NCBI RefSeq assembly: GCF_964194025.1
Contig: NC_134479.1
Coordinates: 50,902,001-50,966,000 of the forward strand
Source: Convolutriloba macropyga
Lineage: Eukaryota
Length of the DNA stretch: 64,000 nt
Direction: 5' to 3'
This document shows, piece by piece, positions 20,756-64,000 of the stretch; the stretch's first letter is position 1, and each line of letters starts with the position of its first letter. Below the pieces are notes generated by a model that was not told the origin of the DNA, ran no database searches, and worked only from the letters and a program-made list of their open reading frames with translations. Position numbers and translations under genes: made by a program.

Positions 20756-20760
20756 ATAAA

Positions 20761-27225: not shown

Positions 27226-27540
27226 AACACTGGTGTTAGCATCTTGCTTTTTCTATTTAAGCACTCAGATGATTTACGATTTGTTTACTTCAAAATTGAA
27301 TGTCTGGGAGCTATTCATGGAGTCTTCATGAAATGTTTTTCTTCCAGTTAATTTATCAGTTCTTTGTTTATGCTCTTATATGTACATATAAGAGCATAAA
27401 CTAAGAACTGATAAATTAACTGGAAGAAAAACGTTCCGTAAAGACTCCATGAATAGCTCCCAGACAATCAATTTTGAAGTAATCAAATCGTAAATTTCTG
27501 AGTACTTAAATAGAAACTGCAAGATGCAAACACCAGAGTT
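27226..27540. repeat. Spacerless palindrome, arms about 157 bp
   Basis: Centre TTTATGCTCTTATATGT|ACATATAAGAGCATAAA at 27383/27384. Arms pair out to AACACTGGTG / CACCAGAGTT with scattered mismatches. Confidence 0.95.
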
Positions 27541-30641: not shown

Positions 30642-32685
30642 TATGACAAAACTCTGTTCAGTCTTAAATTTGGGGCAGGAGCATTTTTCAGACTTTTCAG
30701 GATTAGTTTAGCCTGGGCTACCTTCATGACCTCAAGATAATCATAATGAAGAAAAACTGCATATGAAGAAATTTAAACAAAATGTGGAGATGCAATGTTT
30801 CAGAACTGAATTAGGATTTTACACTTGGAATATGTGGTCACAGCGCTGAAATGCTCTGCAACTCAAATCCGGGCAGTGAATTCAAAAAAATGTGCCTGTC
30901 CGCGCGTGCTATGTAATTGAAAGTCTTCAGTAACTCCAATATAAATTCTTATTAAGGTTTTCATAAATAATCAAAAGAAGCGGTAGTTTTCGCAGCAGGC
31001 AGTGTTTCCAGTGGGTTATGGTCATTTTTCATTTGTGATAATAAGATGAGAAGTTTAAAGACATTGGTCCTTCAGGGCTTGTACGGTTGGCCAGTGAAAT
31101 TACCTAATTGGTTTACGCAAAAAAAGGTTGCCGAGGTGTAATTAAACTTGTGCCAAAAACTCAGTTGGACAATAACTAGAGTAGCTTTTGATACAATCAA
31201 AACGTTTCACTTATACAATGTTTTGTTCTTAAGTATTGTCGGTTACTGAATGTCTGGCCTTCGAAGTTTAGATGAATAAGTTTTGCTGTCAAATAAATCT
31301 CTCAAATCCTATGTTTCAATCTAGTAAGACATGACAATAACACTTTTTGCTCCGACCCCACTTGTGAGGGAGGAACTATATACTCAAATGGTTTTTTTTG
31401 TCAGTCAATTTTGGCTGATCAATAATTTCATCGTAGAGATATGTGAGTGGTATAAATAAAAATCTCGTTCAGTGTCACTTTCGAATTTAATTTTTTTGAA
31501 GTTCGTTTTTTTTCGAAGAGTTATTTAGGTCGAAAGTTTTGTGTGAACAAATGACATTCTGCATGATTTTTAGGAGACTAGTAACTCTCCATATTACGAT
31601 TCTGTTATATAGAAACCTCTGTTACAGTCAAACGAAGCCCAATGAACAAATAATGTGTTTTGAAGTAATCGCTCACATTTTTAATCGCATCGACTCTGAG
31701 TTTTCGATTTTTTTACGTGATCTTACGTATTGCAAAAACAATAAATTTAATTTGGTAATAGTATCTACTAAATGGGATTTTTTTGCTATGTGAAAGCCAG
31801 AGAATTCAAAAATATAAGCTTATGCGGGCGTGCTATGTAATTGTGGTCTTCAGTAAATTCTAATATAAATTGTTTTTAACATTTTGATAAAGAATTCAAG
31901 AGAAGCGGTAGTTTTTGCATCAGCGCTATCATTCTCATTTTCTTTTAATATGAGATACTTACTATATGTATGAAATGAAAGGGAGCTTATAGTCATTTTT
32001 CATTGTGATCATAAGATGAGAAGTTTAGAGTCAATGGTCCTTTAAGGCTTGTTAATACGTGTACGGTTGGCCAGTGAAATTACTCTAAATGGTTTACCGA
32101 TAAAAAGGATGCCGAGGTTTAATTAAACCTTTGCCAAAATTTGGTTTTCTAATGACTCGAGGAACTTTTAGTACAAATAAAATGCTTCACTTCTATCATG
32201 TTTTTTTAGCTTTGTCGGCTACTGAATATTTAGCCTTCCCAATTTAGATGAATAAGTTTTGCTGTCAAATAAATCTCTCAAGTCCTCTTTTTCATTCCAG
32301 TAGGACATGACGATAACATTTTTTGTTCCGAACCCACTTGTGGGGTAGGAGCTATATACTCAAATGGGTTTTTTTGGCTGATCGAAATAATCATCGTAAA
32401 TGCATGTGAGTGGTATAATTAAAAAGCGTAAAGTTGATTTTTTTTGAACTTCGTTATTTTCTAAGAGTTATTTAGGTCGGAAGTTTTGTGCGAACAAAAG
32501 GCATTTTGCTCGATTTTTAGGAGAAATTTTGTTCAAATCATTATTTTTCGAATGAAATCCTAATTCAAATTCACGTCTTTGGTACAAAATCAAACAAATA
32601 TGTGTTTCTAGTAGAAAAAAAAGAAAAAAAATTCCTAGTTTGCTAACAATTGAATAGCGAGATCTTTTTTAGAGCTGTTTTTTTA

Positions 32686-33178
32686 ACGGGATCGACATTA
32701 CCCTCAGAATATCCATCACCGTATTTAGGTCATATTTGGCATTTGAAAGACAGGCGCTTTTGTTTAGTTAATTAATTTTAGTTCATCATAATTCTACCCA
32801 ATTGGGAGTCTGTTTATACTTTAGACAGGAAACTGTCTGTTCATACTGTAAACATTTTGTTCAGCCTTTCCTGTTTCGTGATTGAGCGTTGAACTAAAGA
32901 ACTAAAGTTATTTCCTTTTTGATCTTAATTTGTAATGTAACTTTCATTCTCCAATTTTCATCGCTAGAATTCGGTTCTAATTCAATTTTAGTAAATCGCT
33001 TTTCAAATAAACTCGCTCAATTTGTTGTAAGCTATTCGCACCGCGAATACCCGTTTCAAGAAACGATACTTCAACTAGCCTACAGAAACTTGGCAATCGC
33101 GAGGCAAAAGTCAAATCTCAGAAAATTAATAAGCATTCGCGAATCGATTAACGTACACACTTGTAATCGAGTATAACA
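32686..33178 (+). repeat. 5' LTR of element 1 (5' terminus and TSD deleted)
   Basis: Aligns to 39160-39645 with a few percent substitutions and an 8-bp duplication (GAACTAAA). Confidence 0.93.
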
Positions 33179-36100
33179 TGGCACAGTCGGCAACTGAATC
33201 CAAAAAGAAACCCCTTCATCTTGACGCATTTTGGGAAAAGCTCACCGCCACTCCGCCGCTAACGTGGCATAAATGACGCAACAGTGGAAGCTAGCACTGT
33301 TGGCAAAAGAAGGGATTCAGCTCGAACATCTATTGAAAAACCCACCAACCACGGTAACATACCAAACCGAGCCGACATACGAGGAACCAGTAGAGAATCA
33401 TACGCAAGCATCCGAAAAGGATCCAAAGGTCAGCAATCAACAACTCAAGGTAAATTGGCAAAATCGTTGTGAAAAGATGGATGAAGTTTGTAATTTGTGC
33501 GGAGACAAACCAAGGGGGATTTGTGAACAAAAGTCAGTATTACTATTGTATTTGAGCATTAGAACGGATGGACGGCGTATTTTTAAATGTAATTTTCATC
33601 ATTTTCAAATAGAGAAACAGCCATTTAAAGAACTATGGCAAGCGATGGAGGAAACCTTTACCAAAATTAGAAACATTACGTACGACCGTTTTGTCTTCGT
33701 TTCATCCAAAGAACAAAAAGGCGATTCTGCTGAAAGTGTTTACGGTCGCTTAATTGAACAGGCAGAAAACTGCAGCCTAGGAGATGAAGAAACTACACTC
33801 ATTCGAGACGCCTTTATACTTAACATGATAGATCAGGAGACTCAAAAGGAGTTACTGAAAGAAACTGTTGAACCCTCTAAAGCACTCGAAATAGCAATTC
33901 AAATAAATGGAAATGGGGGCACAGAATCAACAAAAGATAAATCAGAATTTGAATCTTACCACAAACTCAGTTAATGCCGTTAATAACTTTCAAACACGCA
34001 ATCGCAACGCGAATTCCCAAACAACCAGCAAGGACTTCACTCGATATCCATCAGTACCTCAAAACTATCAATAACTATCAATATCAGAATTTGCGTTTAT
34101 TGTGGCCAACGATGGAGTCACAATCGTCGCTAAATTCGCCACGCAAGGACAAAAAGTGCAATAATTGGGGCATAATCGGTCATTTTGCGAAAAAATGCAG
34201 AAAACCGAAACGACCACAGGGACAAGTACCCAAAGCTGCACAAACAAATGTCAACCAAATTGTGATATTTCCTGAAAAAAGTGACGACGAAGAATCCGTT
34301 AACAACATAACTAGCTATCAACAACTATACGACAAAGTCTACGACTCCAACTATGATAGTGACTCCACTGACTATGTGTCGGCTGTTTCATGTGGGTTGG
34401 CAAATCAACTAGAACCTTTAAATGCTAAGATACAATTTGGAAAGGTACAAGCAAACGCAATGATTGACTCTGGAAGTGTAGTTAGTCTTATCACGAAGAC
34501 GCTTGCAAATCGAATATTTCGAACTACACCATCTGTGAAATTGATCACTAAAAGGAGAAGAGGGACTTAAAAAATTTCTCAATTGAGCCAATCAAAGTCC
34601 TTGGACATCTCGAGACAACAGTGACATACAATAACTGGACATGCAAAGCAGTCCACCTAACAATTGTGGAGGACGGTCATAAAATCATCATTGGGAGATA
34701 TCTTTCCGATAGTCTTGGCCTTGCAATTGTTCAACAGCAACAACCAGAAAATGGTAAATGTGTTAAAAAAAACTACAAATTCTGCATGTAAAATTTAAAG
34801 ACAATCGCGGCATAATTTCCTCATTTAGTCTCAAGAACTGGCATCTCAAAGACCCATGCAGCGAGATCGAAGTTTCATCAAACGTTTACAGCAAAGCATC
34901 AAAAAGGCCCACGCGTTCCCATTAATTTACAACCTAGGGTTACGGTGGAATTAGAAAGTCTACAGAATAAAGGCCATATCGAAAAATTATCTAGTTGCTC
35001 AGACGAACTTTTCATATCTCCAATCGTGATTACAGTAAAGAAAGATCAATCTATAAAATTAGCATTAGACTCTAAAGCATTAAATAAAGCCATACATTAA
35101 AATAAATACCAAATACCTAACATTGACATGTTAATTGACACAATCTCACAACACCTCACAAACACCAAAAACGGCCAACAAGCAAATTTTTCCACATTAG
35201 ATCTCAAATATGCTTATAGTCAATTACAATTACACAAAGATAGCGCGAAAAACTGTAATTTTAGTATTATTTGTGGAGAACTTACTAGCACCTATAGATT
35301 TTAAACAGCATTCTACGGTCTTACTGACATGCTGGCAGAATTTCAAAAAGCAATGGACTATACACTGATAGGCCTACAAAACATTTATTGTTTCTTAGAT
35401 GACATAATAATTGTTAGCACAGGTTCTGGAACTGATCATCTAGCATATGTCACAAATTGTCTAAAGAAGTTAGATGACAAAAACTTGAGAATTAATCTCC
35501 AAGAATGTCATTTTGCAAAAACGGAAGTTGAATGGTTCGGGTACAAATTTACCCAAACTGGCATATCACTACTTGAAAGTAAAACTGCAGCAATTCTAGC
35601 AATACCGCCACCATCAACACTGAAAAAACTACGATCTTTCCTCGGCTCAGTACATTACATTGGCAAATTCATACCACACCTAGCACAACTGTGTCATACA
35701 CTTAGACCACTTCTCAAAAAATCCACAAAATATATTTGGACAGAAGAACACAATAAAGATTTTAACTTAATAAAGGAAAAAATTGCTATCATTACGGAGA
35801 ATAGCCACTATAATCCGAAATTAGACGTTAGAGTTAAATGTTACGCTTCAAGTTGGGTTGGGAGCAGCACTTGATCAAAATACACGTGAAGGCTGGAAAC
35901 CAACAGCATTCGCGTCGCGATTTCTAAACTCAAAAGAGGAACGTTACAATGTCAAGGAACTTGACTTATTGGGAATTTTCTGGTCCATTGAATATTTTAA
36001 ATACTACTTGCATGGAAAAAACTTCACTGTAATAACAGATCATCGCGCATTACTATCCATACTAAAAGAGAACAGATCAAAAACATCTTACACTAGTCAA

Positions 36101-39153: not shown

Positions 39154-39645
39154 TGTCATACGGGATTGATATTACCCTCAGAATATCCATCACCGTATTT
39201 AGATCATATTTGGCATTTGCAGGACAGGTGCTTTTGTTCAGTTAGTTAATTTTAGTTCGTCATAATTCTACCCAAATGGGAGTCTGTTCATACTTTAGAC
39301 TGGAAACTGTCTGTTCATACTGTAAACATTTTGTTAAGCCTTTCCTGTTTCGTGATTGAGCGGTGAACTAAAGTTATTTCCTTTTTGATCTTAATTTGTA
39401 ATCCTAAATTTCATTCTCCAATTTTCATCGCTAGAATTCGGTTCTAATTCAATTTTTGTAAATCGCTTTTCAAATACTTTCGCTCAATTTGTTGTAAGCA
39501 ATTCGCACCGCGAATACCCGTTTAAAGAAGTGATATTTCAATTAGCCTACAGAAACTTGGCAATCGCGAGGCAAAAGTCAAATCTCAGAAAATTAATAAG
39601 CATTCGCGACTCGATTAACTTACAAAACTGTAATGGAGTATAACA
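39154..39645 (+). repeat. 3' LTR of element 1 (492 bp)
   Basis: TG...CA termini, preceded by the PPT. Confidence 0.95.
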
Positions 39646-39741
39646 CACTTTTTGTCAAGCCCCTTAGGGACAAGTAACTCTTCATATCATGATTCTATTA
39701 AAGACAAACCTCAGTTACAGTCAAATGATGCCCAATGATCA

Positions 39742-40235
39742 TGTCATACGGCAATGGATACCCTTCATGTATCCATATCCGTATTTGATTTTATTTAGTT
39801 GTTGTAAATTCCATTTGAAGGGCAAATGCCATTTAAGTTCAGTTGATGTACACTTCCTCCCATTTTAGCAGTTTTTGTCTGTTCACTCTGTCTGTAAAGG
39901 AAATACATTCGTTCACGATATAAACAAATCCAAGAGTTGCTTCCGTTATGCGTGATAAAACTTTGAACAAACTTTCTTTCTTAAATTCTATCATTCTTAA
40001 TCTTCATTCTCCAATTTGCAGCGCTAACGCTCAGTTTAATTTAATTCTTGCAAACGCTTCTCATTTGAGCTCAGTAGTTTTGACCAGAGTCAATCGCACC
40101 GCGATTGCCCATTCTAGAAAATAACCATTTGAACGTAACAACTAAACTTGCCATTCGCGGCGCAAGTGCCTATCTCAACTTGTACGAGAGCATTTGCAAT
40201 TCAATTGACTATACTCATTGTGCATGAGTATAACA
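39742..40235 (+). repeat. 5' LTR of element 2
   Basis: TGTCATACGG...GAGTATAACA, near-identical to 48212-48705. Confidence 0.97.
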
Positions 40236-40250
40236 TGGCGCAGTCAGCAG
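40236..40250 (+). promoter_or_regulatory. Primer-binding site complementary to a tRNA-Ser 3' end
   Basis: TGGCGCAGTCAGCAG directly abuts the LTR. It complements ...CUGCCGACUGCG-CCA of metazoan tRNA-Ser with one mismatch, at a position where element 1 has the matching G. Confidence 0.8.
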
Positions 40251-43200
40251 CGGACTCAAAGAAAACACCACTGCACATAGAAGCATTTTGGGAGAAACCG
40301 ACAGCAACACCTCCTCTGACGTGGGACAAATGGACGCAGCAATGGAAACTGGCTCTACTTACTAAGGAAGGGATACAATTAGACACCCTGTTAAACGATC
40401 CCCCCGCAACGGTGACTTACCCGCATGAACTACCTACGAAGAACCGGTAGAAAACCACACACAGGCAACAGAAAGAGATGGTAAAGTTCGAAATCAACAA
40501 TTGAAAGTAAACTGGCAAAACCGTTGTAAAAAGGTTGAAGAAATTGGGATTCTCTGTGGAGACAAACCGTGGGGAATTTGTGAGCAGAAGACGATATCGT
40601 TGATATATCTGAGCATTGGTACAGAGGGACGGCGGATTTTCAAGAGTAAATACCCTCATTCTCAAATAGAGAAACAACCTTTTAAAGACTTGTGGCGGGC
40701 AATGGAGGACTCATTCACAAAGGTTCGTAATATAACTTACGATCGCTTCGTTATCTACTCGTGTAAGCAGCAAAAAGGAGAGTCGGTGGAAAGTTTCTAT
40801 GGTCGTCTCATAGAATTGGCGGAAAATTGCACTCTGGGTAGTGAAGAGACTACATTGATCCGTGATGCATTCATATTGAATATGCTTGATCACGAGACAC
40901 AGAAGGAATTGTTGAAGGAAACAGTAGAACCACCAAAAGCATTGGAGATGGGAGCGCAGAATCAGCAGAAAATAAACCAAAACTTGATGTCAGGTACTAC
41001 TTCTGTGAATTTCATTAATAGTAACCCAGTACGCAATCGCAACGCGAATGGATCTTCAACAAAACGAGACTTCACACGCTACCCAACTGTCCCTCAAAAT
41101 TATCAATATACGAGTGTTTGTATGAATTTTGGTCTCCGTTGGAGTCACAATCATAAGCAGATTTGTCCCGCGAATGGTAAGAAATGCAAAAATTGTGGTA
41201 TTATGGGTCATTTCGCCAGAAAATGCCGCAAACCGAAAAAGTCGCAGAATCCGATACAGAAAACTCAAAAATCAAATGCAAACCAAATTGATCAATCGCC
41301 GGAAAAAAGTGACGATGAAGAATCCGTAAACTATATAACAAGCTATCAACAATTTTATGAACAGGTGTACGATTCAAACTATGATAGTGATTCAGATGAC
41401 TATGTAGCGGCGATTTCTTCTGATTCAGTTCATCAATTGGAACCACTGAACGTGGAAGTTCAAATGGGAGAAATAAGAACATCTGCTATGATTGACTCTG
41501 GAATTGCCGTCAGCATCATAACAAAAAGTTTAGCGAACAAAATCATCCGATCCACAAAATCAGCCAAATGGACAGATACAACAGAAAAAAGGAATTTGAA
41601 AACTTTCTCAAACGAACCAATCAAAGTCATTGGGCACTTGGAAACCACAATAATCTACAACCAATGGAAAGACACATCAGCGATGCTGACTGTGGTAGAC
41701 GATGGGCACAAAAATATCATCGGAAGAGATCTGTTCACTATATTGGGACTTGCAGTTGTTCAACAACAACCAGAAACTGGTAAATGTGTTTATAACATCA
41801 ATAATTCTACATGTAAAATTAAAGAGACAATTGCGACGCAATTTCCACATCTAGTTTCAAGAATTGGCTTATCTAAAACACATGTAGCGAAATCAAAGTT
41901 TCATCAAAAGTTTACAGCAAAGCATCAAAAAGGTCGACGTGTTCCGATAAATCTCCAACCTAGAGTGTCAGAAGAATTAGAAAGATTACAGACTGAAGGT
42001 CATACCGAAAAACTATCTAGTTGCTCTGACGAACATTTTATCTCCCCGATCGTAACCACAGTGAAAAAAGATCAGTCGATAAAGCTAGCATTAGATTCTA
42101 AAGTACTAAATAAAGCAATACATAAAAATAAATACCAAACGCCTAATATCGAAATGTTAATTGATACCATCTCACAACACCTTACAAACACACAAAACTA
42201 CCAACACGCATATTTCAACACATTAGACTTAAAGTATGCATATAGTCAACTAAAATTGCATCATGACACAGCAAAACACTGTAATTTTAACATCATATGT
42301 GGCGAATCTACTGGTACATATAGATTCAAGACTGGTTTTTATGGACTTACAGATATGCCGGCAGAATTCCAAAAAGCTATGGCTTACACACTCATAGGCT
42401 TGCAAAACACATACTGTTTCTTGGACGATATCATAATCGTTAGTACCGGCACTGAAGCAGACCATTTAGCATACGTTTACAAGTGTCTCAAAAAATTAGA
42501 AGACGATAACTTAAGAATTAACCTCCAGAAATGTCACTTTGCTAAATCGGAAATAGAATGGCAAGGTTATAAATTTACACAAACTGGAATATCACCTTTA
42601 GAAAGCAAAACAGCAGCAATTTTAACAATACCACCACCAACAACACTAAAACGACTTAGATCAATTCTAGGGTCAGTACACTACATCGGAAAATTTATAC
42701 CACACTTACCACAATTATGTCACCCTCTTAGACCACTGTTAAAGAAATCTGTAAAATTCATCTGGACAGATGAATACACGAAACATTTTAATCTGATTAA
42801 AGAGAAAATTGCAAACAGTACAGAAAATAGCCATTACAATCCAAAATTGGATGTCCGCGTAAAATGTGATGCTTCACGTTCAGGATTGGGGGCAGCATTA
42901 GAACAAAACACACCAGATGGTTGGAAGCCAATAGCATTCGCGTCACGATTTCTCAATTCAACGGAAGAACGCTACAGTGTCAATGAATTGGAACTGTTGG
43001 GGATAGTTTGGTCAATTAACTATTTCAAATACTATTTGTACAGAAAAAATTTTACAGTAGTGACGGATCATAGAGCCCTATTGTCCATACTTAAAGAGCA
43101 TCGATCTAACAAATCATACAATAGTCGACTATCTCGATGGATCGATAGATTACTTCCGTACAATTTCACAATTGAACATATGCCAGGCGCAAAGATGGGC

Positions 43201-43423
43201 CTCGTTGACTACATTTCCAGGAACCCATTTGCCAGAGCTAAAAAGATATCTACATACGATGAACATTTTGTTGTAGCAACAATTTCAAAAATCCGTGATT
43301 CATTGAAACATTTAATTATAAATAAACAGACAGCAGCTGCAAAATTTAAAAGCATTTTAAAGTCAAATTTGCCTTTGCAAAAAGTAAAACGACCATTCGC
43401 ACCGCGATTACACAGATTACTAA

Positions 43424-46400
43424 GTGTTAATTCACCTAATTGTAAGGAAGCATCTGCATCACGATTAACTACTTCACCATTGAAAACACCATTCGTACCG
43501 CAATTAACACTCCCCAATTCTAAAATTAATTCGCATTTTGAACACCCATTTGCGTCGCAAATGCCACTTAAAGTTACAAAATTACAATTTGCACTAATTA
43601 ATCGTAAAGTCAATAATTCACATTCTATTAACAAATTCGCTGCAAAAGAGGTGCAAATGTCAGACAGTAAAGAATGTGAACAATCTGAACAATTATCCCC
43701 AATACAGCCCATTAATGGTATTAAATCAAGTAATCCACCTAACAACACTGAATTAAGCGCGAAAGCACAAATTCCTAAGTATAAATACCACTTACACAAA
43801 AATCACTCGCTTTTTGCCCAAATTCAGCCTACAAAACACTACTTTGTGAATAAACACAATAAATCTCTCATGTCAAACAATTCAATAAACAGTATAAAAA
43901 CAATGTCAAAGGCCAAAGCAACCCGCTCTAAATCAACCTCTACAAAGGCGAGAGTAACTTTCTCAGACACGACTCCTTCAACACCTGGATCTAATACAAC
44001 ATCACACACAGAAACCAGACCTGGTAGTATGATAGAGGAGGCCGACGACATTATGTTTACTGAGACACTCAATAAAGTGTTCAGTAAGAAGTTCTTGGCC
44101 ATACTGACAGGAAAGGATGCGATACTAAAAGAAGTAAGGGACTGTGTGATCAGAAACGACGCGGATCGATTACAAGAGATAAGCCCTTATCTCTTCTCAT
44201 ATTGGAGAGATTTAAGCGTCAAACATGGGTGTGTCTGCCTCGACGAAAGAATTGCCATACCCAAATCAATAAAGGACGCGGTGCTGGAAGATATCCACTC
44301 CTCACACCCAGGAAGTTTCGCCATGCTCTCCCTAGCCCAAAATATCTGGTGGCCCTACATCCACAAAGATATACTGGCAAAAACCAGTGAGTTCAAAGCT
44401 TGCACGGAAATTGGTAAGAACCTCAAATCAGTGATTCCGCACCGCAAATGGACACCTCTACCTAAATGTAGTGAACCAAACGACGAAATACAATTAGACT
44501 TTAGTGGACCAATTTTAAATGAGAAAGGCATAGAGCAATATTTTATTACAAGTATAGATAGATATTCTAAATACCCTACAGTAGAAATAGTAAATAATGC
44601 ATCAGGCCCAAATGTAATCAAATTCTTAAATAATTATATATATCAACACGGAGTACCTAGAACTATTAGACTAGATCAAGCTAGATGTTTCACAGGAAAA
44701 AAGTTTGAGATTTTTGTACTGAAAATAATATTACAACTATATATGCACCAGCGAATGATCATAGAGCAATCGGATTAGTAGAGCGTATTATTCAAACAAT
44801 TAAACGACAATTATCTTGCATGAAATCAAAATTAAATAAAAAATTTAATTTAAAAACTTCACTAAAAGCAATAATACAACGATTAAGAGTATCAAAACAA
44901 AAAACAATAAATATCACACCATTTGAAGCACAATTCGGTTGAAAATGTAACACACCTATATCAAATATCACAACAAAATCTGATAGTAAAAATCTGAATT
45001 ATAATGCAATAATTAATTATTATTTAGACGAAGATACAGTTCCGGGCCGCTCCTACCTGACAGAAGAACAGTGAGAGGATACGGCTCTATGTTCTGACAC
45101 GGAGATTGAAGTGTCATTTGTCATTTGCGCCGCAAGTACCCTTGCAAGAACTGAGCAAGAGAAACGAAACGATGGAGAAGAACGTTTCATTAGTTCAGAC
45201 GCCGTTTGCCGCCCAATCCCTTGCTCGGAACGTAGCGTGCAGGTGAAGTTGGCTCGCAAGCTACACGATAACCAACGTCAAAAGAAGAACCTAGATGGCC
45301 TATATGAGGTGCTAGCACCAGGAAGCACTGTGTGCAAAGTAAGCCCCACGACGAATGTGATAAAAGAGCCACACAAACAAGAAGTACGGGTTAGGAACTC
45401 GGATATCGTAGTGTTAATTCACCTAATTGTAAGGAAGCATCTGCATCACGATTAACTACTTCACCATTGAAAACACCATTCGTACCGCAATTAACACTCC
45501 CCAATTCTAAAATTAATTCGCATTTTGAACACCCATTTGCGTCGCAAATGCCACTTAAAGTTACAAAATTACAATTTGCACTAATTAATCGTAAAGTCAA
45601 TAATTCACATTCTATTAACAAATTCGCTGCAAAAGAGGTGCAAATGTCAGACAGTAAAGAATGTGAACAATCTGAACAATTATCCCCAATACAGCCCATT
45701 AATGGTATTAAATCAAGTAATCCACCTAACAACACTGAATTAAGCGCGAAAGCACAAATTCCTAAGTATAAATACCACTTACACAAAAATCACTCGCTTT
45801 TTGCCCAAATTCAGCCTACAAAACACTACTTTGTGAATAAACACAATAAATCTCTCATGTCAAACAATTCAATAAACAGTATAAAAACAATGTCAAAGGC
45901 CAAAGCAACCCGCTCTAAATCAACCTCTACAAAGGCGAGAGTAACTTTCTCAGACACGACTCCTTCAACACCTGGATCTAATACAACATCACACACAGAA
46001 ACCAGACCTGGTAGTATGATAGAGGAGGCCGACGACATTATGTTTACTGAGACACTCAATAAAGTGTTCAGTAAGAAGTTCTCGGCCATACTGACAGGAA
46101 AGGATGCGATACTAAAAGAAGTAAGGGACTGTGTGATCAGAAACGACGCGGATCGATTACAAGAGATAAGCCCCTATCTCTTCTCATATTGGAGAGATTT
46201 AAGCGTCAAACATGGGTGTGTCTGCCTCGACGAAAGAATTGCCATACCCAAATCAATAAAGGACGCGGTGCTGGAAGATATCCACTCCTCACACCCAGGA
46301 AGTTTCGCCATGCTCTCCCTAGCCCAAAATATCTGGTGGCCCTACATCCACAGAGATATACTGGCAAAAACCAGTGAGTTCAAAGCTTGCACGGAAATTG

Positions 46401-47398
46401 GTAAGAACCTCAAATCAGTGATTCCGCACCGCAAATGGACACCTCTACCTAAATGTAGTGAACCAAACGACGAAATACAATTAGACTTTAGTGGACCAAT
46501 TTTAAATGAGAAAGGCATAGAGCAATATTTTATTACAAGTATAGATAGATATTCTAAATACCCTACAGTAGAAATAGTAAATAATGCATCAGGCCCAAAT
46601 GTAATCAAATTCTTAAATAATTATATATATCAACACGGAGTACCTAGAACTATTAGACTAGATCAAGCTAGATGTTTCACAGGAAAAAAGTTTGAGATTT
46701 TTGTACTGAAAATAATATTACAACTATATATGCACCAGCGAATGATCATAGAGCAATCGGATTAGTAGAGCGTATTATTCAAACAATTAAACGACAATTA
46801 TCTTGCATGAAATCAAAATTAAATAAAAAATTTAATTTAAAAACTTCACTAAAAGCAATAATACAACGATTAAGAGTATCAAAACAAAAAAACAATAAAT
46901 ATCACACCATTTGAAGCACAATTCGGTTGAAAATGTAACACACCTATATCAAATATCACAACAAAATCTGATAGTAAAAATCTGAATTATAATGCAATAA
47001 TTAATTATTATTTAGACGAAGATACAGTTCCGGGCCGCTCCTACCTGACAGAAGAACAGTGAGAGGATACGGCTCTATGTTCTGACACGGAGATTGAAGT
47101 GTCATTTGTCATTTGCGCCGCAAGTACCCTTGCAAGAACTGAGCAAGAGAAACGAAACGATGGAGAAGAACGTTTCATTAGTTCAGACGCCGTTTGCCGC
47201 CCAATCCCTTGCTCGGAACGTAGCGTGCAGGTGAAGTTGGCTCGCAAGCTACACGATAACCAACGTCAAAAGAAGAACCTAGATGGCCTATATGAGGTGC
47301 TAGCACCAGGAAGCACTGTGTGCAAAGTAAGCCCCACGACGAATGTGATAAAAGAGCCACACAAACAAGAAGTACGGGTTAGGAACTCGGATATCGTA
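43424..47398 (+). repeat. Direct tandem duplication inside element 2: 43424-45410 and 45411-47398
   Basis: Junction GGATATCGTA|GTGTTAATTC. I found 3 substitutions and one extra A between the copies. Confidence 0.95.
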
Positions 47399-48211: not shown

Positions 48212-48705
48212 TGTCATACGGCAATGGATACCCTTCATGTATCCATATCCGTATTTGATTTTATTTAGTTGTTGTAAATTCCATTTGAAGGGCAAATGCC
48301 ATTTAAGTTCAGTTGATGTACACTTCCTCCCATTTTAGCAGTTTTTGTCTGTTCACTCTGTCTGTAAAGGAAATACTTTCGTTCACGATATAAACAAATC
48401 CAAGAGTTGCTTCCGTTATGCGTGATAAAACTTTGAACAAACTTTCTTTCTTAAATTCTATCATTCTTAATCTTCATTCTCCAATTTGCAGCGCTAACGC
48501 TCAGTTTAATTTAATTCTTGCAAACGCTTCTCATTTGAGCTCAGTAGTTTTGACTAGAGTCAATCGCACCGCGATTGCCCATTCTAGAAAATAACCATTT
48601 GAACGTAACAACTAAACTTGCCATTCGCGGCGCAAGTGCCTATCTCAACTTGTACGAGAGCATTTGCAATTCAATTGACTATACTCATTGTGCATGAGTA
48701 TAACA
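48212..48705 (+). repeat. 3' LTR of element 2
   Basis: Follows the PPT and is followed by TSD GAACA. Confidence 0.97.
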
Positions 48706-50389
48706 GAACAAATAATCGGTTTTGAAGAAATCACTCACGTGTTTAATGCTTCCACTCTGAGTCTTCGTATTGTTTTACGTGATCTTACGTTTTGCTGAAA
48801 CAATACATTGAATTTTGTAATAGTATATATCAAATGTTTCTTTTTTGCTATTTGAACGCCAGTGAATTCAAAAACAAATGCCAATCCACTTGTGCTATGT
48901 AACTGAAAGTCTTCAGTAAACTCTAATATAATATGTTACTGAGGTTTTGATAATTCGTGAGAAGCATTAGTTTTTGCATAAGCGCTATCAATCCTAATTT
49001 CTTTTGATAGGATTTTTTTACTGCTGGTATCAAAAAGAAGAGGAATCTAGTCATTTTTTATTGGTGATAAGAAGGCGAGAAGTTTAAAGTCAATGGTTTT
49101 TAAAGTGTTGTTATTAAGTGTACGGCTAGCTAGTGAAATTTCTCTAAACGGTTTACCGATAAAAATCATTCATAGGCCTAATTAAGTTTGTGACAAAAAT
49201 TACAATTACTAAAGGGACCTTTGATACAAATAGAAGGATTCATTGCTGCTACGTTTTGGTTGTTAACATTGTCAGTTACTGAATGCTTAGCCTTTCAATT
49301 TTTTGATGAATTAGTTCCCCTGTCAAATAAATCTACTAGTCCTCTTTTGCATTCCGACCTCAATCAAATGGTTTTTTTCTGTCTTATCGATGCATTCATA
49401 GTAGGGAAATGAGGGTGGCATAAATAGAAAACCCGTTGAGCGAAAAATTCGAAAATACATTTTTTTTAAAAAAAAAATTCCTCTAAGAGTTATTGTGGTC
49501 AAATTTTTTGTGAGTGAACACGTGATATTTGGCTTGATTTTGTTCTCTTTTAGGGGAAATTCGTTCAAACTATGATTTTGTAAATTAAAATCGAAATTCA
49601 AAGCTATATTTTTCGCTGCAAATTCAGACAACTTTGTGTTCCTAATAGAAGAAAGGCAGTAAAATAGCTAGTTATGGTCTCATAGTGATTTATACTAACA
49701 AATAAAAACCAAATTCTAATTTAGAGCTGTTTGTTAAAAAATCTTTTCAAAAATTTGTTTTCTTTTTTTTTCAAATCTCTTAGCCACTAGTCACTTTTCA
49801 TATCATGATTCTGTTGATACAAACCTCATCTACAGTCAAATGATGCCCATTGAACAAATAATTCGTTTTGAAGAAATCGATCACGTTTCTTATGGCTTCG
49901 ACTCTGAGTTGTCGTATTTTTTTTAAAAAAAATTTTGATATTCTTTTGAGATTTCGAAAGTTTTTTGCAATACTATGACAGTGTCAGTGAATTAAGCTCC
50001 ATTATGAGCATCAATTGAACCTATCTAGTGGTTTGAGTGGACAAATAATAGCTGCTAAGTCTTCAAAAACAATTAGTCGACAAATTTTTGAAAAATCAAC
50101 CGATGTTAAAGTAATTTCTTTGTATTGGTGATTCAATTTTAATAAAAAAGACCCTTTTTTTCTACTGCAAGCAAGCTTAAACTGGTTAGCGGCTTTAAAT
50201 GCTGACTATTGGTTTTATGACTTCGATGCGACGAGTTTTTTCAGTTTTTTTTTGGAAAATGTTTGTATGTTTTCATGCTTTTGGTTTGTTTCGAAATCTT
50301 GTCTTATTATCTTAATGCTGACAGTTCTCATAGGAAAAAAGAAAAGTTTAGTTGATCATAGAAAAGAATTTCAAACGAAAAGTTTATGG

Positions 50390-53890: not shown

Positions 53891-55994
53891 TTCGCGGGCG
53901 GTCAACAGTGAAAAACCTGAGAGAGACAAAACACTTGAATTACTATCATACAGGTACAAGTACCAGAAAAATGTAACCAACATTACATTATTATGACAGA
54001 AACCTGTATTCAAATGTTATTCAAATGAGAATGAATCAGTCACCTGATAATTTGGAATTGTTAAATTTTAACTAATAAGTGATTTGCAGGAAGTGCGGAA
54101 AAGTTGGGGAAGCCCTGCAACCGTTAATTCTTTTCTTGTCAAATTGACTACGGATATTTTCAGTTTGTCCCCCTCCCTAAAGTTGAGTTATAGCATATTA
54201 TGTACATCCGTTGAGTGAACAAGCCGGTGAATGAATTACTACTTGATGATAAGCTATCTGCTGGCGCCTGCTCTGTTACTGGGAGTAAAAACGCATAGAG
54301 TAAAAACGCGTCATAGATTTAAAAAAGCCCTGAATCAACGATGACAAATTTGGCAAAGTTTTTTTTTATGAATTGTCGATTTGAACAAGCGCTAACAATG
54401 TAAACAACTGACAGTAAATGTTCCAAAAGGTAATTTTGCCTAAAGTAAACAGAAAAAAATATTAAGTTAATAAATTTCTTAAGTTGTTTATTTTATGATG
54501 TTTTAGGTGATCATTAAAGATCAAATACCGTATGTTCAAGGCATTTAGAGCCTCGTAATAATCATCTGCGCTTATGTCAATAAAAGTAATTATTGCAGTA
54601 ATTTGACATTTACTATGTAAACAATGAACTAAATCATTTCCTTGATTAACCAATCAGAAACAAGTAGCAATGATGTTATAAAGGATAAATATTTGCTTAT
54701 CTAATTTAACCGAATTGTTTGATTAGTGAAACCGAATTGTATTTAGAACCATTAGAAACTGTTATACGGAGCAGTTGGCTCTCAGATTTACTAAAATTTG
54801 GTTCTTTAGCAACTTCAGTCTTTTTTGCTAAGTTTTGGTAGATCTTAAGATCTTGCGAGTTTTAAGTTTGTTTAGCTTACTTGACGAGAATTTAGCAACA
54901 TCACTGACCATGGTTGAAGCCTTACAAACTTCAGCACAAGATTGAACATAGACTATCACGAAGGATTTTCTTAACCGCAATCAACAAAATTAAAATTACA
55001 GTCCTTCAATACGTCCGAGTGACTAATAATTCTGCGAGATTGTTAGTCAATCGAAACCTGTAAAGAACCAGGCTGGCGTAAATCTCGAGAACCAGGCTGA
55101 GGTATATGGATTCCGTTGAGATTCTTGAGCAGCCGCAACACATTGCATCTAACCAAAACAGGAAAAAGGTCCAGTGCCCACCATTACAGTTTTATAAAGA
55201 ATTGACAACAGAAATTCAAATTATTCAAGCCCCCCTTGCACCTCTACGGTTCTAATTTTCGAACATCGGTTTAAAACAAAAGAAAAAGCCAGTTTTGGAA
55301 TCTTTTATATTTCCCCCACCTTTCTTTTAGGTTACTGCATCTTATTTAAACCCCTCAAAAAAAACACGCGCCCTAATTTTACAAAAACGGATTACTATGC
55401 AGTGGCACGTGCACCGTAAAAGTAGGGGGTTGTCGAACTCTTTTTGTCTGATGTAGGCTTTTGTTACGCGAGCGTGTTTTTTACGAATTGGATTTCGCTG
55501 GGCAAAATTACAACTGTAATTCTATTATTGAACATGCGGCGCAAAATCAAGAAAGAGAGAAGCAACTGAAGTTGAAATAAAAAAATGAAGCAAATAACTG
55601 CAGTGGTTAAAAACAAGTGTGATAAAGTGATCAGACGTGTCTGATTACGAGGCGGGAAAAAGTAGAAAAGATGAGTGAAATTAAGTTGAAGCGGGAAACG
55701 TGAAATAAACAAATGAAGATGAAATAGGGATAAAGGATAAACTAAAAGAATCTAAATTATAGCAATTTAAAAAATTTTACTGCACGAAATAAATTGAACA
55801 GTAAATAATGAATACAGGTATCACAAACCCATTGTGTGAAAAAGATTGAACAATTAGGGCATTTTTTCTAGTACAATAATAACAATTTTTACAAACTAGT
55901 ACTTGGTCCCCGGTTAAAGAAATAGTACAAATGTATTTGCTGGTTATCATAGCTAATAATATGAATATAAAACGTTATAACGTGTACTTGAGTT

Positions 55995-58900
55995 TTTATT
56001 TGGAGTTGTCTTGGTTTTCGGCTTCATTTAACGTCATCAAAATTATGTCCTCCTAGAGTGTGACGGAGCCCTCTGGTCTGCTAACAGGTGAACTCGCGGT
56101 TCGCATTAGAGACAGCTAATAGTTGAACTCGCGGAAGAGACGCATTGCCGATGTTTGGTGATATATTTCCGTCATCCGGGATTTGCTCTGCAATCGATTG
56201 CACTGTTTCCACCACCGAAACGTCGGTCGACTGGAAACGGTCGACTGCATGGTCTTTTGGAGCTGCTGTAATACCCGAATCTATGGAAAAGTTTTCTAAG
56301 CAGTAGTAAGATGGGCTGCGGCAATCTCTGTCAGAGGAATGCTTGTTTGTGTTGCTGAGCTCGTCGTTGGCGGAACTTGTTGTAATGCAGATGTTGATGC
56401 ATTTGGGGATGGTATCACAAGTTCTTCTTGCGAATCCGGTTTGATGACACCGAGCTCGTTTCGCAGAGCAGAAAAGTTAGGCAAATTAGGGATGCGCTAC
56501 CGCATCGCGAATGCAAAGTTGGAACGAGAAGAAGATACGCCAAAGCTTGTTTGTTGTTTTCTGTTTACATATTCACAGCTGGTGAAAAATAGTCCTTAAT
56601 GCATGCTTTATTTTGAACGAATTTGTAGCCAATTTTTCTTCTTTGATACATGTGAGTCTGTTCATAATTGTTTGTTTTAGTCTTTCTACCAAACCGATTG
56701 CCCAATGGCCGTTAACGGGAGCGTCAACAGTTTCAATATTATTTTTGTTGCAGAAGGTCTTGACTTGGTGCCCTAGAGTAAATTTTGCTTGATCCAGACG
56801 AATATAACGTGGAATTCCGTGATTTTCATTGTACATGTCCAAAAATTGTAATACATTAGGATCATTAGCTTTTTCATAGGAAGGAAAATTTGAAAATTGG
56901 TCTATTGCATCTAAAGGTTTTTTTTTCATTTCCATTTTCATCAAAAATTGGTGCCCCAATATCAATTTCTATTTCTTGGTTCAGTTCAGCTCACTGTATT
57001 TGAGGTCGAAATTGCGTATCGAGAATTACATATTTAAGATTCTTACCAAATACATTACAAGGTTTACATTTTGTGGATTTGGCTATTAATTCCCGGTTCA
57101 TGTTTACCCACCAGTGCGTGGCCATACACAACATTCCCCAGGTAACAGGGCGGCTCGCGTTGAGGTTGTATATGAGCGCCTCTCGTAGTACATTTGGGAT
57201 CGCAATCTTTTCGTGAATGCAAACGCAACCAACGCAAATATGTATATCGCGCCAATACGAATGAATGTATGGGTTGGATTCTTTCAACCTCGCTTCGTTG
57301 TTTGTCAGGTTGCAGTAGCGCACCTCTTCGAGGACCGCGTCTTTACTAGTTATTGATGTTATAAGGGATTTGCTAAACACATTCCCTATAATGTTATTGA
57401 AGGTTGGTATTTGTGGGCTTGGGGTTAGGGGTGTGCTAGCTTCAAATGATGCCTCAGTGGAAGTTGGTGTAGTGGGTTTTAGGGAGGAGTGGCTCTGCGA
57501 AAGAACTAGAAGGAATAGAGTGTGGATTCGCTGGGCGATGGGAGTCATAAACTGGACTCGGGTGAGTCATCGCTTCTTGGGAGTCATAGTGATTGAATTC
57601 ATTGAATTAGCAATATCAAGTTTAGCGACAATAAATTGATCATTGCAAGCGAAAACTCTATTAGATTTTTGTTTAAGGTGTTTAGATATACAGTCAACTA
57701 CGCCCACTTTGGCACCTGGCATATGCTCAATTTCAAAATAATAGGGTAAAAATCTATCTACCCAACGGATTAACCGACTATTGTATAACATATAAGAACG
57801 ATTTTTTTATAGGATTGAAAGAAGAGCCCTATGTTCTGTTATATCTTTCGGCTTTCATCCATCTACTGTTAATTGTTCGAGAGCGGCTCCGAGTCCGGAA
57901 CGAGATGCATATACTTAACACGCGTTACGAGTTGCTGATTATACTGAAAATTTTTGATTGCATTCAAAATGCTATTCCTTATCCCAATATAACAGTTTTC
58001 ATGTATTTAACTCCAAACATATTTAGGTGATTTTTTCAACAAGGGACGTAGTGGATGACTAATTTGTGGAAGATTTGGAATAAAATTACTTATGAAATGT
58101 ACTGAACCAAGAAAACAACGGATTTTTTTTTGGTGTTTTTGCTACTCCAAGATTCAAAATGGCAGACGTTTTGCTTTTGATCGGTGAAATAACCCATTGT
58201 GATTTAAGATAACTAAGCCTGTCAATTTCTAATTTAGCGAAATGACATTCTGGGAGATTAATTCTAAGATTTTCGTCATCCAATCTTTTGAGACAATTTA
58301 ATACATATTGTTTTTGATCTTCTTTTTTTCCCTTTGCCGACAATTAAAATGTCGTCAAGAAAACAATATGTATTTTTAAACCAACTAAAGTGTAATCTTT
58401 TGAAATTCCGCCGGCATTTTTGTTAAACTGTAAAATCCAGATTGAAATCTGTATGTGCCTGTCATGTCGCCGCTCACTATATTGAATTTACAACGATTAG
58501 CTGTAAAGGGGTCTAGGTTTAGCTGACTGTACATATTATGTACCCGCAGCTGACTCTTCGTATTTCAAGTCCAATGTAGAAAAATAGATGATGTTTTTCG
58601 ATGCGGGCTCACTAATCTGGACTTGTTTGAGAAAATTTGTCGTTGTGGTATAGCGGCTTCGCGTACCTAAAACGCATGTTTAGTGCTGTTGACCACCCAC
58701 GTTGCGAGTGATTGGTTTTGGAAAACTGCAGCCGCTTCCGGATTCGACAAGTAGTGTTGTGGAAACTTTGCCGATTTTGATCGGCATGTGTAGGGTTCTA
58801 TTTTTGCGAGGTCATCATGAATTGTGGACACCATGTCGTCCTGGCCGCTACTATAGTCGAATTCGTAAAGTTTTGCTGATTGCAAGAAATTGACAGAATC

Positions 58901-59902
58901 TTCTGGGTGTGGTTCTTCATCCACATCCACATTGTTTACTGACTTTTTCTTTGGGTTCTGTGGTTTTTTCAGTTGTTGCAGGTTTTGTTCTGGTGAGACA
59001 TTTGTCCCGTTGACTAGGAAGCCAATTTCCACCACAATTTGAACAGTAAAGCGGGACGGCTGCCTTGCTTGTGGAAATTATATGAAAGTAACCAGTTCGA
59101 TGATCGAGTACTGGGTGTATACTAAATTGTGTTACGCTATCCGGGATGAGGGTCTTATTGTGTTTTTGAATATGATGTTGGTTGCTTTTTCCAATTACCA
59201 GGTTTATTGCTAAATCCCTCGCTTGTTGCGGCTCTACCGTCTGTCTGAGAGGTTCCTTTTGAATCTCAGGATAAATCAGATTCTTAATGAACACGTCCAT
59301 GATCAGGGTTTCTTCCTTGTTCTCATAGTCACGACTTTTGGATGAATCTTTGCGTTTCCCTTAGAAGTGTTCAACTGTTCCTCCACTAATTTGCTTCGTG
59401 ATTAGGAAAACATATCTATCCAAAATGACATTTTTGGTCAAATGAACGCATCCTCTGCTATTTTCCAGAACTCGGCAGTCAATCATTATATGCGGATTTT
59501 TGCCATTCAGAATCCTGCGCCCCTCTACACCAAAATTTAGATAGAGTAAGGAAACTGTTTTTCGGTTCGCGAGTGGCCACTGTTTCTCCCCACATATGAT
59601 TCCATTTTCAATCAATCTTTGCATTTATTATGCTCTTTATTTGTTGGGAATTGCGAGCATATCGTTCCCGTTCAGATTTGAAGATGCTTCTACGATTGTT
59701 TTTTCATAGATTGGTTCCAGGGGAAGTTCAAGCACCTCGGGTTTCGGACTGAAAAATTATCAAGTATGGTATTTTCTTTAGCAAGTAGCGCTCATTTATA
59801 TTGAACTCTCCACTTCTCCCATCTGAGAGTTAAGTCGAGTGTCGGTTTGTCACAGAATGCGTCAAGTCCAAGTGGTGTTATTTTGTTTGCTGACTGCGCC
59901 AT
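55995..59902 (-). pseudogene. Element 3 gag-pol remnant (left copy, includes integrase)
   Basis: MAQSANKITPLGLDAF, CFLDDI, EHMPGAK, YIHSYWRDI, IRLDQA, GLVER, EAENQDNSK*. Large deletions across PR/RT and after the IN core. Confidence 0.85.
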
Positions 59903-60229: not shown

Positions 60230-62999
60230 ATTTTTTTTCTGGTTTGCGACTTTTGGAAAGATGCTTGAAATGTCTATTAATTAAATGAAAATAAGGCTCA
60301 TAGAGTTGAGTTTCTTGCCCCGCGGAATATTTTTCATTCTGAATTAGTAAAGAATGCTTAAAATGATGTACTTTTTGGCATTCATTAATGAATTTTGAGA
60401 TCTGGGGGATAAATGAAACTCATGCTTGTGTAAGCGAGGGTCAAATATGCTAATTGTTCTTATTGAACTTATGATAGATTCACTATTAGCTGTGATTTGT
60501 GGTGCGGGATTATACATTTTTAGCAAATTTTGCAAACGGGATGCGGATTTGCTAGATTTTAAATTTAGAGACTCTGCATATGCGGAAATAATATCAAGTT
60601 TAGCGACAATAAATTGATCATTGCAAGCGAAAACTCTTTTAGATTTTTGTTTAGGGTGTTTACATATGCAGTCAACTACGCCCACTTTGGCACCTGGCAT
60701 ATGCTCAATTTCAAAATAATAGGGTAAAAATCTATCTACCCAACGGATTAACCGACTATTGTATAACATATTAGAACGATTTTTTATAGGATTGAAAATA
60801 GAGCCCTATGTTCTGTTATATCTTAAAATTATTTGCGTACAAATAGTTTTTGAACTATTCGATGGACCAAATTACATCCAGGAGTTCTAATTTGGTAACA
60901 CTGTATCTCTCTTCACAAGAATTTAGAAACTTAGATATGAGAGCGATCGGCTTTCATCCATCTACTGTTAATTGTTCGAGAGCGGCTCCGAGTCCGGAAC
61001 GAGATGCATATACTTAACACGCGTTACGAGTTGCAGATTATACTGAAAATTTTTGGTTGCATTCAAAATGCGATTCCTTATCTCAATATAACAGATTTCA
61101 TGTATTTAACTCCAAATATATTTAGGTGATTTTTTCAACAAGGGACGTAGTGGATGACTAATTTGCGCAAGATTTGGAATAAAATTACTTATGAAATGTA
61201 CTGAACCAAGAAAACAACGGAGTTTTTTTGGTGTTTTTGCTACTTCAAGATTCAAAATGGCAGACGTTTTGCATTTGATCGGTGAAATAACCCATTGTGA
61301 TTTAAGATAACTAAGCCTGTCAATTTCTAATTTAGTGAACTGACATTCTGGGAGATTAATTCTAAGATTTTCGTCATCCAATTTTTTGAGACAATTTAAT
61401 ACATATTGTTTTTGATCTTATTTTTTTCCTTTACTGAAAATTAAAATGTCGTCAAGAAAACAATATATATATTTTTAAACCAACTAAAGTGTAATCTTTT
61501 GAAATTCCGCTGGTATTTCTGTTAAACTGTAAAATCCAGATTGAAATCTGTATGTGCCTGTCATGTCGCCGCTCATTATATTAAATTCACAATGATTAGC
61601 TGTAACGGGGTCTAGGTTTAGCTGACTGTATATATTATGTACCCGCAGCTGACTCTTCGTATTTCAAGTCCAATGTAGAAAAATAGATGGTGTTTTTCGA
61701 TGCGGGCTCACTAATCTGGACTTGTTTGAGAAAATTTGTCGTTGTGGTATAGCGGCTCCGCGTACCTAAAACGCATGTGTAGTGCTGTTGACCACCCACG
61801 TTGCGAGTGATTGGTTTTGGAAAACTGCAGGCGCTTCCGGAGTCGTGTAGTGTTGTGGAAATGTTGCCGATTTTGATCGCCCTGTGTAGGGTTCTCTTTT
61901 TGCGAGGTTATCATGAATTGTGGACACCATGTCATCCTGGCCGCTACTATAGTCGAATTCGTAAAGTTTTGCTGATTGTAAGAAATTGACAGAATCTTCT
62001 GGGTGTGGTTCTTCATCCACATCCACATTGTTTACTGACTTTTTCTTTGGGTTCTGTGGTTTTTTCAGTTGTTGCAGGTTTTGTTCTGGTGACACATTTG
62101 TCCCGGTGACTAGGAAGCCAATTTCCACCACAATTTGAACAATAAAGCGGGACGGCTGCCTTGCTTGTGGAAATTATTTGAAAGTAACCAGTTCGATGAT
62201 CGAGAAATGGGTGTATACTAAATTGTGTTACGCTATCCGGGATGAGGGTCTTATTGTGTTTTTGAATATGATGTTGGTTGCTTTTTCCAATTACCAGGTT
62301 TATTGCCAATTCCCTCGCTTGTTGCGGCTCTACCGTCTGTCTGAGAGGTTCCTTTTGAATCTCAGGATAAATCAGATTCTTAATGAACACGTCCATGATC
62401 AGGGTTTCTTCCTTGTTCTCATAGTCACGACTTTTGGCTGAATCTTTGCGTTTCCCTTAGAAGTGTTCAAATGTTCCTCCACTAATTTGCCTCGTGATTA
62501 TGAAAAAATATCTATCCAAAATGACATTTTTGGTCAAATGAACGCATCGCCTGCTATTTTCCAGAACTCGGCAGTCAATCATTATATGCGGATTTTTGCC
62601 ATTCAGAATCTGGCGCCCTTCTGCACCAAAATTTAGGTAGAGTAATGAAACTGTTTTTCGGCTCGCGAGTGGCCACTGTTTGTCCCCACACATGATTCCA
62701 TTTTCAATCAATCTTTGGCATTTATTATGCTCATTATTAGTTGGCAATTGCGAGCATATCGTTCCCGTTCAGATTTGAAGATGCTTCTACGATTGTTTAT
62801 TCATAGATTGGTTCCAGGGGAAGTTCATGCACCTAGGGTTTCGGACTGAAAAATTATCAAGTATGATATTTTCTTGAGCAAGTAGCGCTCAATTATATTG
62901 AACTCTCCACTTCTCCTATCTGAGAAGTAGGTCGAGTGTCGGTTTGTCCCAGAATGCGTCGAGTCCCAGTGGTGTTATTTTGTTTGCTGACTGCGCCAT
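60230..62999 (-). pseudogene. Element 3 gag-pol remnant (right copy, gag to RNase H linker)
   Basis: Near-duplicate ORFs of 57612-59902. It shares the PR/RT deletion but keeps RH and linker segments lost from the left copy. Confidence 0.85.
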
Positions 63000-64000
63000 G
63001 TCGTACTCTACTTATTTCATGTAGGCTTTTGCTACGCGAGAGCGTGTTTCTTTTACAAATTGGATTTCGCTGGGCAAAATCAGAAGTGTAATTCTATTAT
63101 TAAACTTGCTGAATTCTATTTTGTTCTTTATTAATTCAATAAAGAGAGAAGCAACTAATTAAGAATTAAAAAATGACGCGAATAAATCATGTGGATATAT
63201 ACAAGTGTGATCAGGTGATCAGACGTGTCTTGACACGAGGCGGGAAACACTAGACAAGATGAATGAAATTAACTCGAAGCGGGAAACGTGAAACAAACAA
63301 ATGAAGACGAAATAGGAATTAAGGGTAAACTAAAATGAACTAAATTATATCATTGTAATAAATTTTACTAAAAAAATTGAACATTAAATCATGAATAAAG
63401 GTATCACAGGGGCCAATGATATACTATGGGAAGCAGACTGAAAAAATGAAACTTTCTCTAACAATGTCCGATTCAATTTTAAAAGAGATCAAGGATTTTG
63501 AACAATTTTGGAGTAGCAATCATACAAATGATTGTCAATTTTTCTTGGATTTTAGACCAGGCATTTTTCAAATTCCGAGGAGCTTGCGAGCAAACAAATA
63601 TATTGTTATTATTTCAAGTTTGTTATAATAATGCTGACTTCAAATTTTTGTGCGAGAGTGCAAAGTGGATTTGAGCAACACTAGCTAATTGAAATTTTAT
63701 GCCAGATTCATATTGATAACAAACTAGCTAATAGAAATTACGCAGATTCATATTGATAACAAACGCAAACCAACTCTATACGAAAAACTATGTTGAGCAA
63801 TAACAAATTTACAAACAGATGTCCATGTTTCAAACACAACCCAATTCTCATAGAAGGGTCAATACTGCTTTCAATTACGCTTTGGAATTTTACAAAACAG
63901 TAGTTGCAATTTTCATCTTTCGTGCAATTAATTTGTAAAATTTCTAGCTAAAGTAGGAATAATTTTGAGAATCTATATGAATCACAAGAAAGCAGTGGGA

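Follow-up and report, generated by a model that had tools for sequence, protein, structure and literature searches.

A likely gag-pol start codon at the junction of the LTR end and a tRNA-Ser primer-binding site in a clade of Ty3/gypsy retrotransposons

We describe a clade of LTR retrotransposons in which the terminal CA of the 5' LTR abuts a tRNA-Ser primer-binding site (PBS) with zero spacer, in which the ATG formed at this junction is likely the start codon of gag-pol, and in which the codons that follow are likely re-copied from the primer tRNA. We assign this reading a probability of about 0.78. The layout itself is real and clade-wide; a PBS inside gag is known from Ty1, but there the AUG lies upstream. 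A full-text search of mostly open-access literature found no start codon described as an LTR end plus a PBS. The arrangement also has a practical side, since repeat libraries that split the LTR from the internal part halve the junction ATG and would miscall the start of gag.

Junction layout in the window and in intact genomic copies

A PBS scan of the window, i.e., the whole 64,000-nucleotide stretch of DNA that was analysed, returned four junctions and no others, their ATGs lying at 33178, 40235, 62999 (minus strand) and 59902 (minus strand). At all four, as the earlier note had claimed, the LTR end ...ACA stands directly against TGGC(G/A)CAGTC with no spacer, and the translation reads MAQSA (Table 1). 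In element 2, the final base of the 5' LTR is thus the A of the junction ATG at 40235. The accompanying claim that a 3' LTR lacks the ATG holds for the window, where the three 3' LTRs (ends at 39645, 48705 and, on the minus strand, 55431) close with the same ACA, which fixes the position of the LTR end, and meet bases other than TG; in element 1, CACTT follows the end at 39645 and no ATG is formed. It does not hold everywhere, however, as in one genomic copy (L040) a target site beginning with TG gives the 3' LTR an ATG by chance. All copies in the window are broken, element 1 by a stop, element 2 by a frame change and element 3 by stops.

Table 1. Parts of the three retrotransposon copies in the window
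Feature	Position	Strand	Remarks
Element 1, 5' LTR, eroded start	32686..33178	+	91.7% identity to its own 3' LTR, which ends at 39645
Element 1, junction ATG and decayed PBS with 2 mismatches	33178..33191	+	stop at codon 33
Element 2, 5' LTR, TGT...ACA	39742..40235	+	99.6% identity to 48212-48705; near-perfect 5-bp target duplication
Element 2, ATG at the junction, with A at -3 and G at +4; likely start of gag-pol	40235..40237	+	same position opens 1922-1956 aa frames in five intact copies
Element 2, PBS, 15 nt complementary to the tRNA-Ser(AGA/CGA) 3' end plus CCA; codes Gag residues 1-5	40236..40250	+	
Element 2, gag-pol (Gag, CCHC knuckle, RT, RNase H, integrase)	40235..44778	+	frame change near 40430-40450 breaks the frame
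Element 2, internal tandem duplication, 1987 bp, RNase H-integrase region	43423..47398	+	99.8% identity
Element 2, 3' LTR	48212..48705	+	GAACA next, hence no ATG
Element 3, 5' LTR	62999..63408	-	
Element 3, junction ATG and 14-nt PBS	62985..62999	-	in-frame stop within the LTR, 4 codons upstream
Element 3, second junction	59888..59902	-	within the 3.1-kb internal tandem duplication
Element 3, 3' LTR	55431..55825	-	ACCCC next, hence no ATG

Several further features of the window were recorded. Internal tandem duplications occur in two of its three elements, at 43423-47398 (1987 bp, 99.8%) and at 57848-63327 (~3.1 kb, 95.8%), the latter taking in a partial LTR and the second junction; tandem junction pairs were also found in L037 and further loci. 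Elements 1 and 2 lie only ~96 bp apart (39645-39742), both inserted in one older repeat, of which separate pieces match across the insertions (31644-32298 with 48706-49355, and 39649-39741 with 49765-49856). Elsewhere, about five units, each 1.16-1.42 kb long and up to 99-100% identical, are arrayed in tandem at 8400-14620. Fragmented plus-strand frames at 16186-21287 encode an RT domain (PF00078, E 2e-38); no LTR pair was seen, and they are probably a decayed non-LTR element. Long inverted repeats are represented by a 2.4-kb foldback at 205-2576 (75-90%) and a 315-bp palindrome at 27226-27540 (91%).

A search of the host genome yielded 6637 candidates, of which 150 were scored and 12 with long frames were retrieved. 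Both LTRs could be resolved in 11 of these 12 copies, the twelfth being a tandem structure, and in 11/11 a perfect 5-bp target duplication adjoins TGT...ACA, so that the LTR ends on the A of the ATG and the spacer is zero. The earlier note had named loss of the frame among intact copies as a counter-argument; in the event the frame was conserved, with a single gag-pol frame of 1922-1956 aa opening at the junction ATG in five intact copies. Pfam places CCHC at residue 322 of an intact copy, protease at 414 (weak), RT at 617, RNase H at 850 and integrase at 1348-1512. A purine run, as expected of a polypurine tract, directly abuts the 3' LTR, and the best solved-structure match of the RT/RNase H is Ty3 (4ol8, 7q5b, E 2e-61). 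With a TG...CA LTR pair and a target duplication within 4-6 bp, the order Gag-PR-RT-RNase H-IN, a PBS and a polypurine tract, the family is a Ty3/gypsy (Metaviridae) LTR retrotransposon without env. Its only named close relative bears an acoel label, and the ESM Atlas returned generic Gag/CCHC clusters only.

Reading frame, codon pattern and upstream sequence

The translation MAQSA and its frame with Gag, as described beforehand, were borne out; but MAQSA is fully dictated by the PBS, and its conservation alone is therefore no evidence of translation. More informative is the distance from the ATG to a conserved Trp. Queries restricted to the core, with the Gag N-terminus left out, picked 110 copies in five subfamilies; the junction ATG was kept in 107 of them, and the ATG-to-Trp distance was a multiple of three in 109, at spacings of 48, 51, 51, 54 and 57 nt. 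As subfamilies B-F had been picked from predicted proteins already beginning with MAQ, the blind test is confined to the set obtained with a foreign query, which matched 21 divergent copies at 32-41% identity. Here, the junction ATG was present in 21/21 copies and in frame in 17, at three spacings. Contigs of two sequencing runs of unknown kind showed the multi-copy family only.

We also counted codon positions of variants common to at least two distinct copies, after identical rows had been merged and two C loci excluded. From the PBS to the Trp, third positions accounted for 24 of the 34 shared variants, and 27 were synonymous; in the last four LTR codons the corresponding values were 7 and 9 of 19, the latter being some synonymous excess as well (p = 0.03), which counts against the favoured reading.

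With regard to the sequence upstream, the last 100 nt of the LTR in subfamilies B-F (five of seven) contain 0.06-0.19 ATG per copy compared to 1.2-1.5 expected, and no such depletion was found 300-400 nt upstream. In the divergent G families the depletion is slight, and in subfamily A an out-of-frame ATG in a weak context (T at -3) lies 11 nt upstream of the junction in 24 of 39 copies, the one at 40235 included, so that the description 'first AUG' is not universal. Subfamily D carries C at -3 of the junction ATG. A gag AUG further upstream inside the LTR, as in Ty1, was not found: there is no conserved in-frame upstream ATG, and in some subfamilies in-frame stops stand four codons upstream of the junction ATG. 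Among the 13 junctions of the long-frame copies, the 32 open codons upstream hold an in-frame ATG in one, and the next Met after the junction is residue 157 in 12. The earlier proposal of putative initiation at the junction is thus well, if indirectly, supported by a frame kept through indels, by synonymous bias after the PBS, by the lack of an alternative AUG and by an AUG-poor leader, and the junction ATG is, on this comparative evidence, likely the gag-pol start.

Primer tRNA, PBS variation and reach of the clade

The tRNA 3' end predicted from the PBS gave 59 pattern matches in the host genome and none for a reversed control, and ARAGORN identified tRNA-Ser(AGA/CGA) at five of seven loci tested. 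Genes for tRNA-Ser, the primer species of the expanded family, form large tandem arrays in the host genome (C12:7.08-7.22 Mb, C13:11.33-11.37 Mb and C12:22.27-22.40 Mb). The PBS matches the tRNA over 15 nt in the subfamily of the 40235 copy; the 15-nt length previously given for the stretch said to serve as integrase attachment end, PBS and putative start agrees with this, but is too long for other subfamilies, in which the match is mostly 13-14 nt and, in some divergent ones, shorter. The primer duplex is predicted to be stable and covers two of the three bases of the start codon. Extended pairing of the tRNA 3' of the PBS, attractive in one duplex fold, was rejected as a general feature, as it beat shuffles in one of seven subfamilies. 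In that one, subfamily D (L135-L154), pairing of the T-arm with the 27 nt that follow the PBS exceeded that of shuffles (z -1.6 to -4.5 in 12 copies); in the six others, T-arm pairing above shuffles was absent.

Variation within the PBS is concentrated at base 9, where 159 of 188 loci have T, 29 have C and none has A or G, while the other bases among 1-11 show at most seven variants each. T gives Ser and C gives Pro at residue 4 of Gag, and six host tRNA-Ser genes (three CGA, three TGA) carry the base that matches the base-9 variant. On trees built without the PBS, the base-9 state is unclustered and randomly distributed: 10 changes were counted in 29 rows (shuffles, 9.9), 7 in 20 rows (6.5), and 30 on the 110-copy tree compared to 28.9 for shuffles, with at least 19 forced by starred branches. 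In particular, two separate insertions, L091 and L101, show no difference over 875 tree columns but have different bases at position 9 of the PBS. In subfamily C, base 13 is normally the last to match, and in 9/9 variants at base 14 the base present is that of the tRNA. Furthermore, in L306 and L378, which sit on separate branches, three changes each extend the tRNA match to precisely nt 18 and bring a stop at codon 7, which cannot have spread by selection. No Ser/Pro toggle was seen in subfamilies D and E (20 copies each), and no tRNA match beyond nt 15 in any of the 39 copies of subfamily A.

The random placement of base 9 and the 18-nt copies in L306 and L378 do not fit inheritance of the PBS from genomic RNA as in Ty1 and Ty3. 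At the level of genomic inference, the pattern points to a retrovirus-like inheritance of the primer into the PBS that lands in coding sequence, and primer inheritance would thereby be recorded in protein, with a host non-coding RNA templating coding sequence. Other loci bear individual marks. L310 (host genome C1505) matches the tRNA to base 15 and then lacks 10 nt, the trace expected of a misplaced plus-strand transfer. A full 18-nt PBS is kept in some lineages (L286, P0286, P0203), where the start reads MAQ(S/P)AG and the next residue is F, Y or S, as a codon with T first permits without a stop.

At the protein level, 26 full-length polyproteins share at least 44% RT identity, and 19 of them start with MAQS, MAQP or MALR; among the other seven, one has MALR after LTR read-through, five have apparent later starts and the sister P0312 has a different start. 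The earlier note had allowed that the arrangement might already be routine among Mag-like relatives. It is the rule within its own clade, yet a PBS-encoded peptide start was found in 0/62 of the distant full-length Mag-like polyproteins retrieved, 19 of which have a second residue impossible from ATG-G. On an RT tree with K02A2.6-like and unnamed proteins as references and 11 rows left ungrouped, 18 junction-type rows fall on one side of a branch with support of 93, as opposed to 28 other starts. Gene models that extend into the LTR have Asn or His immediately ahead of the Met in 16/16 cases, as an LTR end ..AC ATG requires. The nearest named relatives are K02A2.6-like proteins with 30-39% RT/RNase H identity, across a long separating branch.

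Within the clade, the layout is held across 45-75% RT identity and through a primer change: the start of a sister clade, MALRA, is what the host tRNA-Ser(TGA) would dictate, which indicates that the start survived the change. DNA of the MALRA family was not found in the host genome (best match 41%), and this family probably comes from another host; similarly, the sister P0312 family gave no matches there. The evidence for the junctions of these two families therefore consists of protein N-termini, together with L258 and L256 from a second host. The latter was reached by a metagenome search with a narrow alignment, the broad one being too diverse, which gave 79 loci from a different, more GC-rich host. 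Eight clade members with upstream sequence were among them. A Ser-type PBS stands at the start in 8/8, CA is directly followed by TG in seven and the frame to the Trp motif is kept in six, the LTR ends being putative ones from single LTRs. In the outgroup loci L257 and L263, the ATG lies away from any such junction.

Pseudoscorpion proteins starting with MAQIQ fell outside the clade on the RT tree. Searches of protein clusters yielded no names for the unnamed members of the clade. One canonical CCHC knuckle preceded by a degenerate one is found in Gag, and many distant relatives have two canonical knuckles 20 aa apart; two tandem CCHC knuckles in Gag are a feature of the Mag lineage. The Ser primer and the 5-bp target duplication match the habit of that lineage (tRNA-Ser/Leu/Arg, mostly 5-bp duplications) and are not specific to it. 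One AP-1 gamma-like gene model (protein P0004) contains fused Gag-Pol fragments of this retrotransposon family, by misannotation or exonisation.

Explanations of the junction and comparison with known systems

In the explanation that we favour, the arrangement would follow from constraint. Integrase would need the terminal CA, and the CCA end of the tRNA would dictate TGG; with both forced, and in a context of G at +4 and, in most cases, a purine at -3, the AUG would be hard to lose. In most subfamilies no other AUG would precede it on the transcript, so that the lineage would likely have adopted it as a start instead of keeping it as a harmful upstream AUG. Plus-strand strong-stop DNA would copy the primer in retrovirus fashion and thereby renew codons 1-5, residue 4 of Gag would be Ser or Pro depending on which tRNA-Ser had primed, and over-long primer copying would rewrite codons 5-7. 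The closing of initiation by an annealed primer would be a putative by-product.

That closure might instead be a selected switch, in which annealing of tRNA-Ser, assisted by Gag, or host 3' tRNA fragments would block the AUG and commit the RNA to packaging and reverse transcription. The annealed tRNA or fragment would lie over the second and third bases of the AUG (U and G) together with codons 2-5. Such a switch would add to the constraint explanation while replacing nothing in it. Initiation is more easily blocked than elongation, and a predicted stable duplex over two bases of the AUG makes the switch plausible; the persistence of the layout across the clade, primer change included, agrees with it, but is explained equally well by constraint. 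Retroviral priming takes place inside particles, after translation, so that priming of this kind would follow translation anyway, and extra T-arm pairing above shuffles is confined to one of seven subfamilies. For ERVs, 3' tRNA fragments directed at the PBS reduce both RNA and protein (PMC7472051). We regard a selected switch as a tentative idea, with the odds leaning against it. Slightly more doubtful still is the comprehensive version, a whole invertebrate Ty3/gypsy clade with integrase end, primer site and start codon fused into one self-renewing element, in which the priming tRNA writes MAQSA, MAQPA or MALRA and its annealing shuts off translation; if true, one tRNA species would decide both the N-terminus of the protein and the fate of the RNA. 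A primer on the start codon bears on how the RNA of an LTR element is shared out between translation and packaging, and puts that division within reach of a small reporter.

Two other explanations would each remove one part of the favoured one, and we consider both improbable. Gag could start elsewhere, i.e., at a near-cognate codon in U5 with read-through of the Ty1 kind, at a spliced start or at a later Met, with the junction ATG in frame only by descent. Subfamily A does have its 32 open codons upstream, and in some subfamilies there is a Met ~35 residues in. However, subfamilies differ in the length of the open stretch upstream, which ranges from 4 to more than 40 codons and usually lacks an ATG, codon periodicity begins directly after the PBS with no third-position excess in the LTR, and a later Met would forfeit the conserved W-x-x-P...W motif. 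The T/C toggle and the tRNA-like bases could, for their part, reflect hot-spot mutation or recombination between copies, with the PBS strictly inherited from RNA; T to C is a transition, and neither Ty1 nor Ty3 inherits primer sequence (PMC5371799). The count of 29 C at base 9 against no more than seven variants at any other of bases 1-11 speaks against this account, as do L091 and L101, alike in all 875 tree columns yet unlike at base 9, and the three tRNA-matching bases, ending at nt 18, that L306 and L378 each gained along with a codon-7 stop.

The junction can thus be set beside several known systems. Ty1 of Saccharomyces cerevisiae, with a 53-nt 5' UTR and its PBS at nt 95-104 inside GAG, resembles the present family in having the PBS within translated sequence (PMC5454406). 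It differs in that its AUG lies ~40 nt upstream of the PBS and is not covered by the primer, in that primer sequence is not inherited (PMC5371799), and in being a copia-type element primed by tRNA-iMet. Ty3 is the best structural match for RT/RNase H and shares the order PR-RT-RH-IN, but its PBS is bipartite, lies in untranslated regions and is not perpetuated from the tRNA (PMC5371799), whereas the PBS described here is contiguous, coding and apparently tRNA-templated.

Among animal elements, a table of Ty3/gypsy members places the PBS within 0-1 of the LTR end in 14 of the 32 rows with a PBS that were counted by eye, under an unclear coordinate convention (PMC13524379), so that a short spacer as such is common. 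Mag-lineage or K02A2.6-like Ty3/gypsy elements in the Culex table of PMC3286476 likewise use a tRNA-Ser primer, have mostly 5-bp target duplications and carry one or two ORFs; the LTRs of the present family measure ~490 nt, compared to mostly 120-300 nt. In retroviruses and murine ERVs (MLV, HIV-1, ETn/MusD), the primer tRNA is copied into the PBS and isoacceptor switches occur, with perfect and variant PBSs scattered over the tree as here (PMC7472051). These viruses have a spacer of 2-4 nt and a PBS in the 5' UTR, in contrast to the zero spacer and the copy in Gag codons 1-6 found here. The family, a Ty3/gypsy one, thus appears to inherit its primer sequence like a retrovirus, unlike both yeast models.
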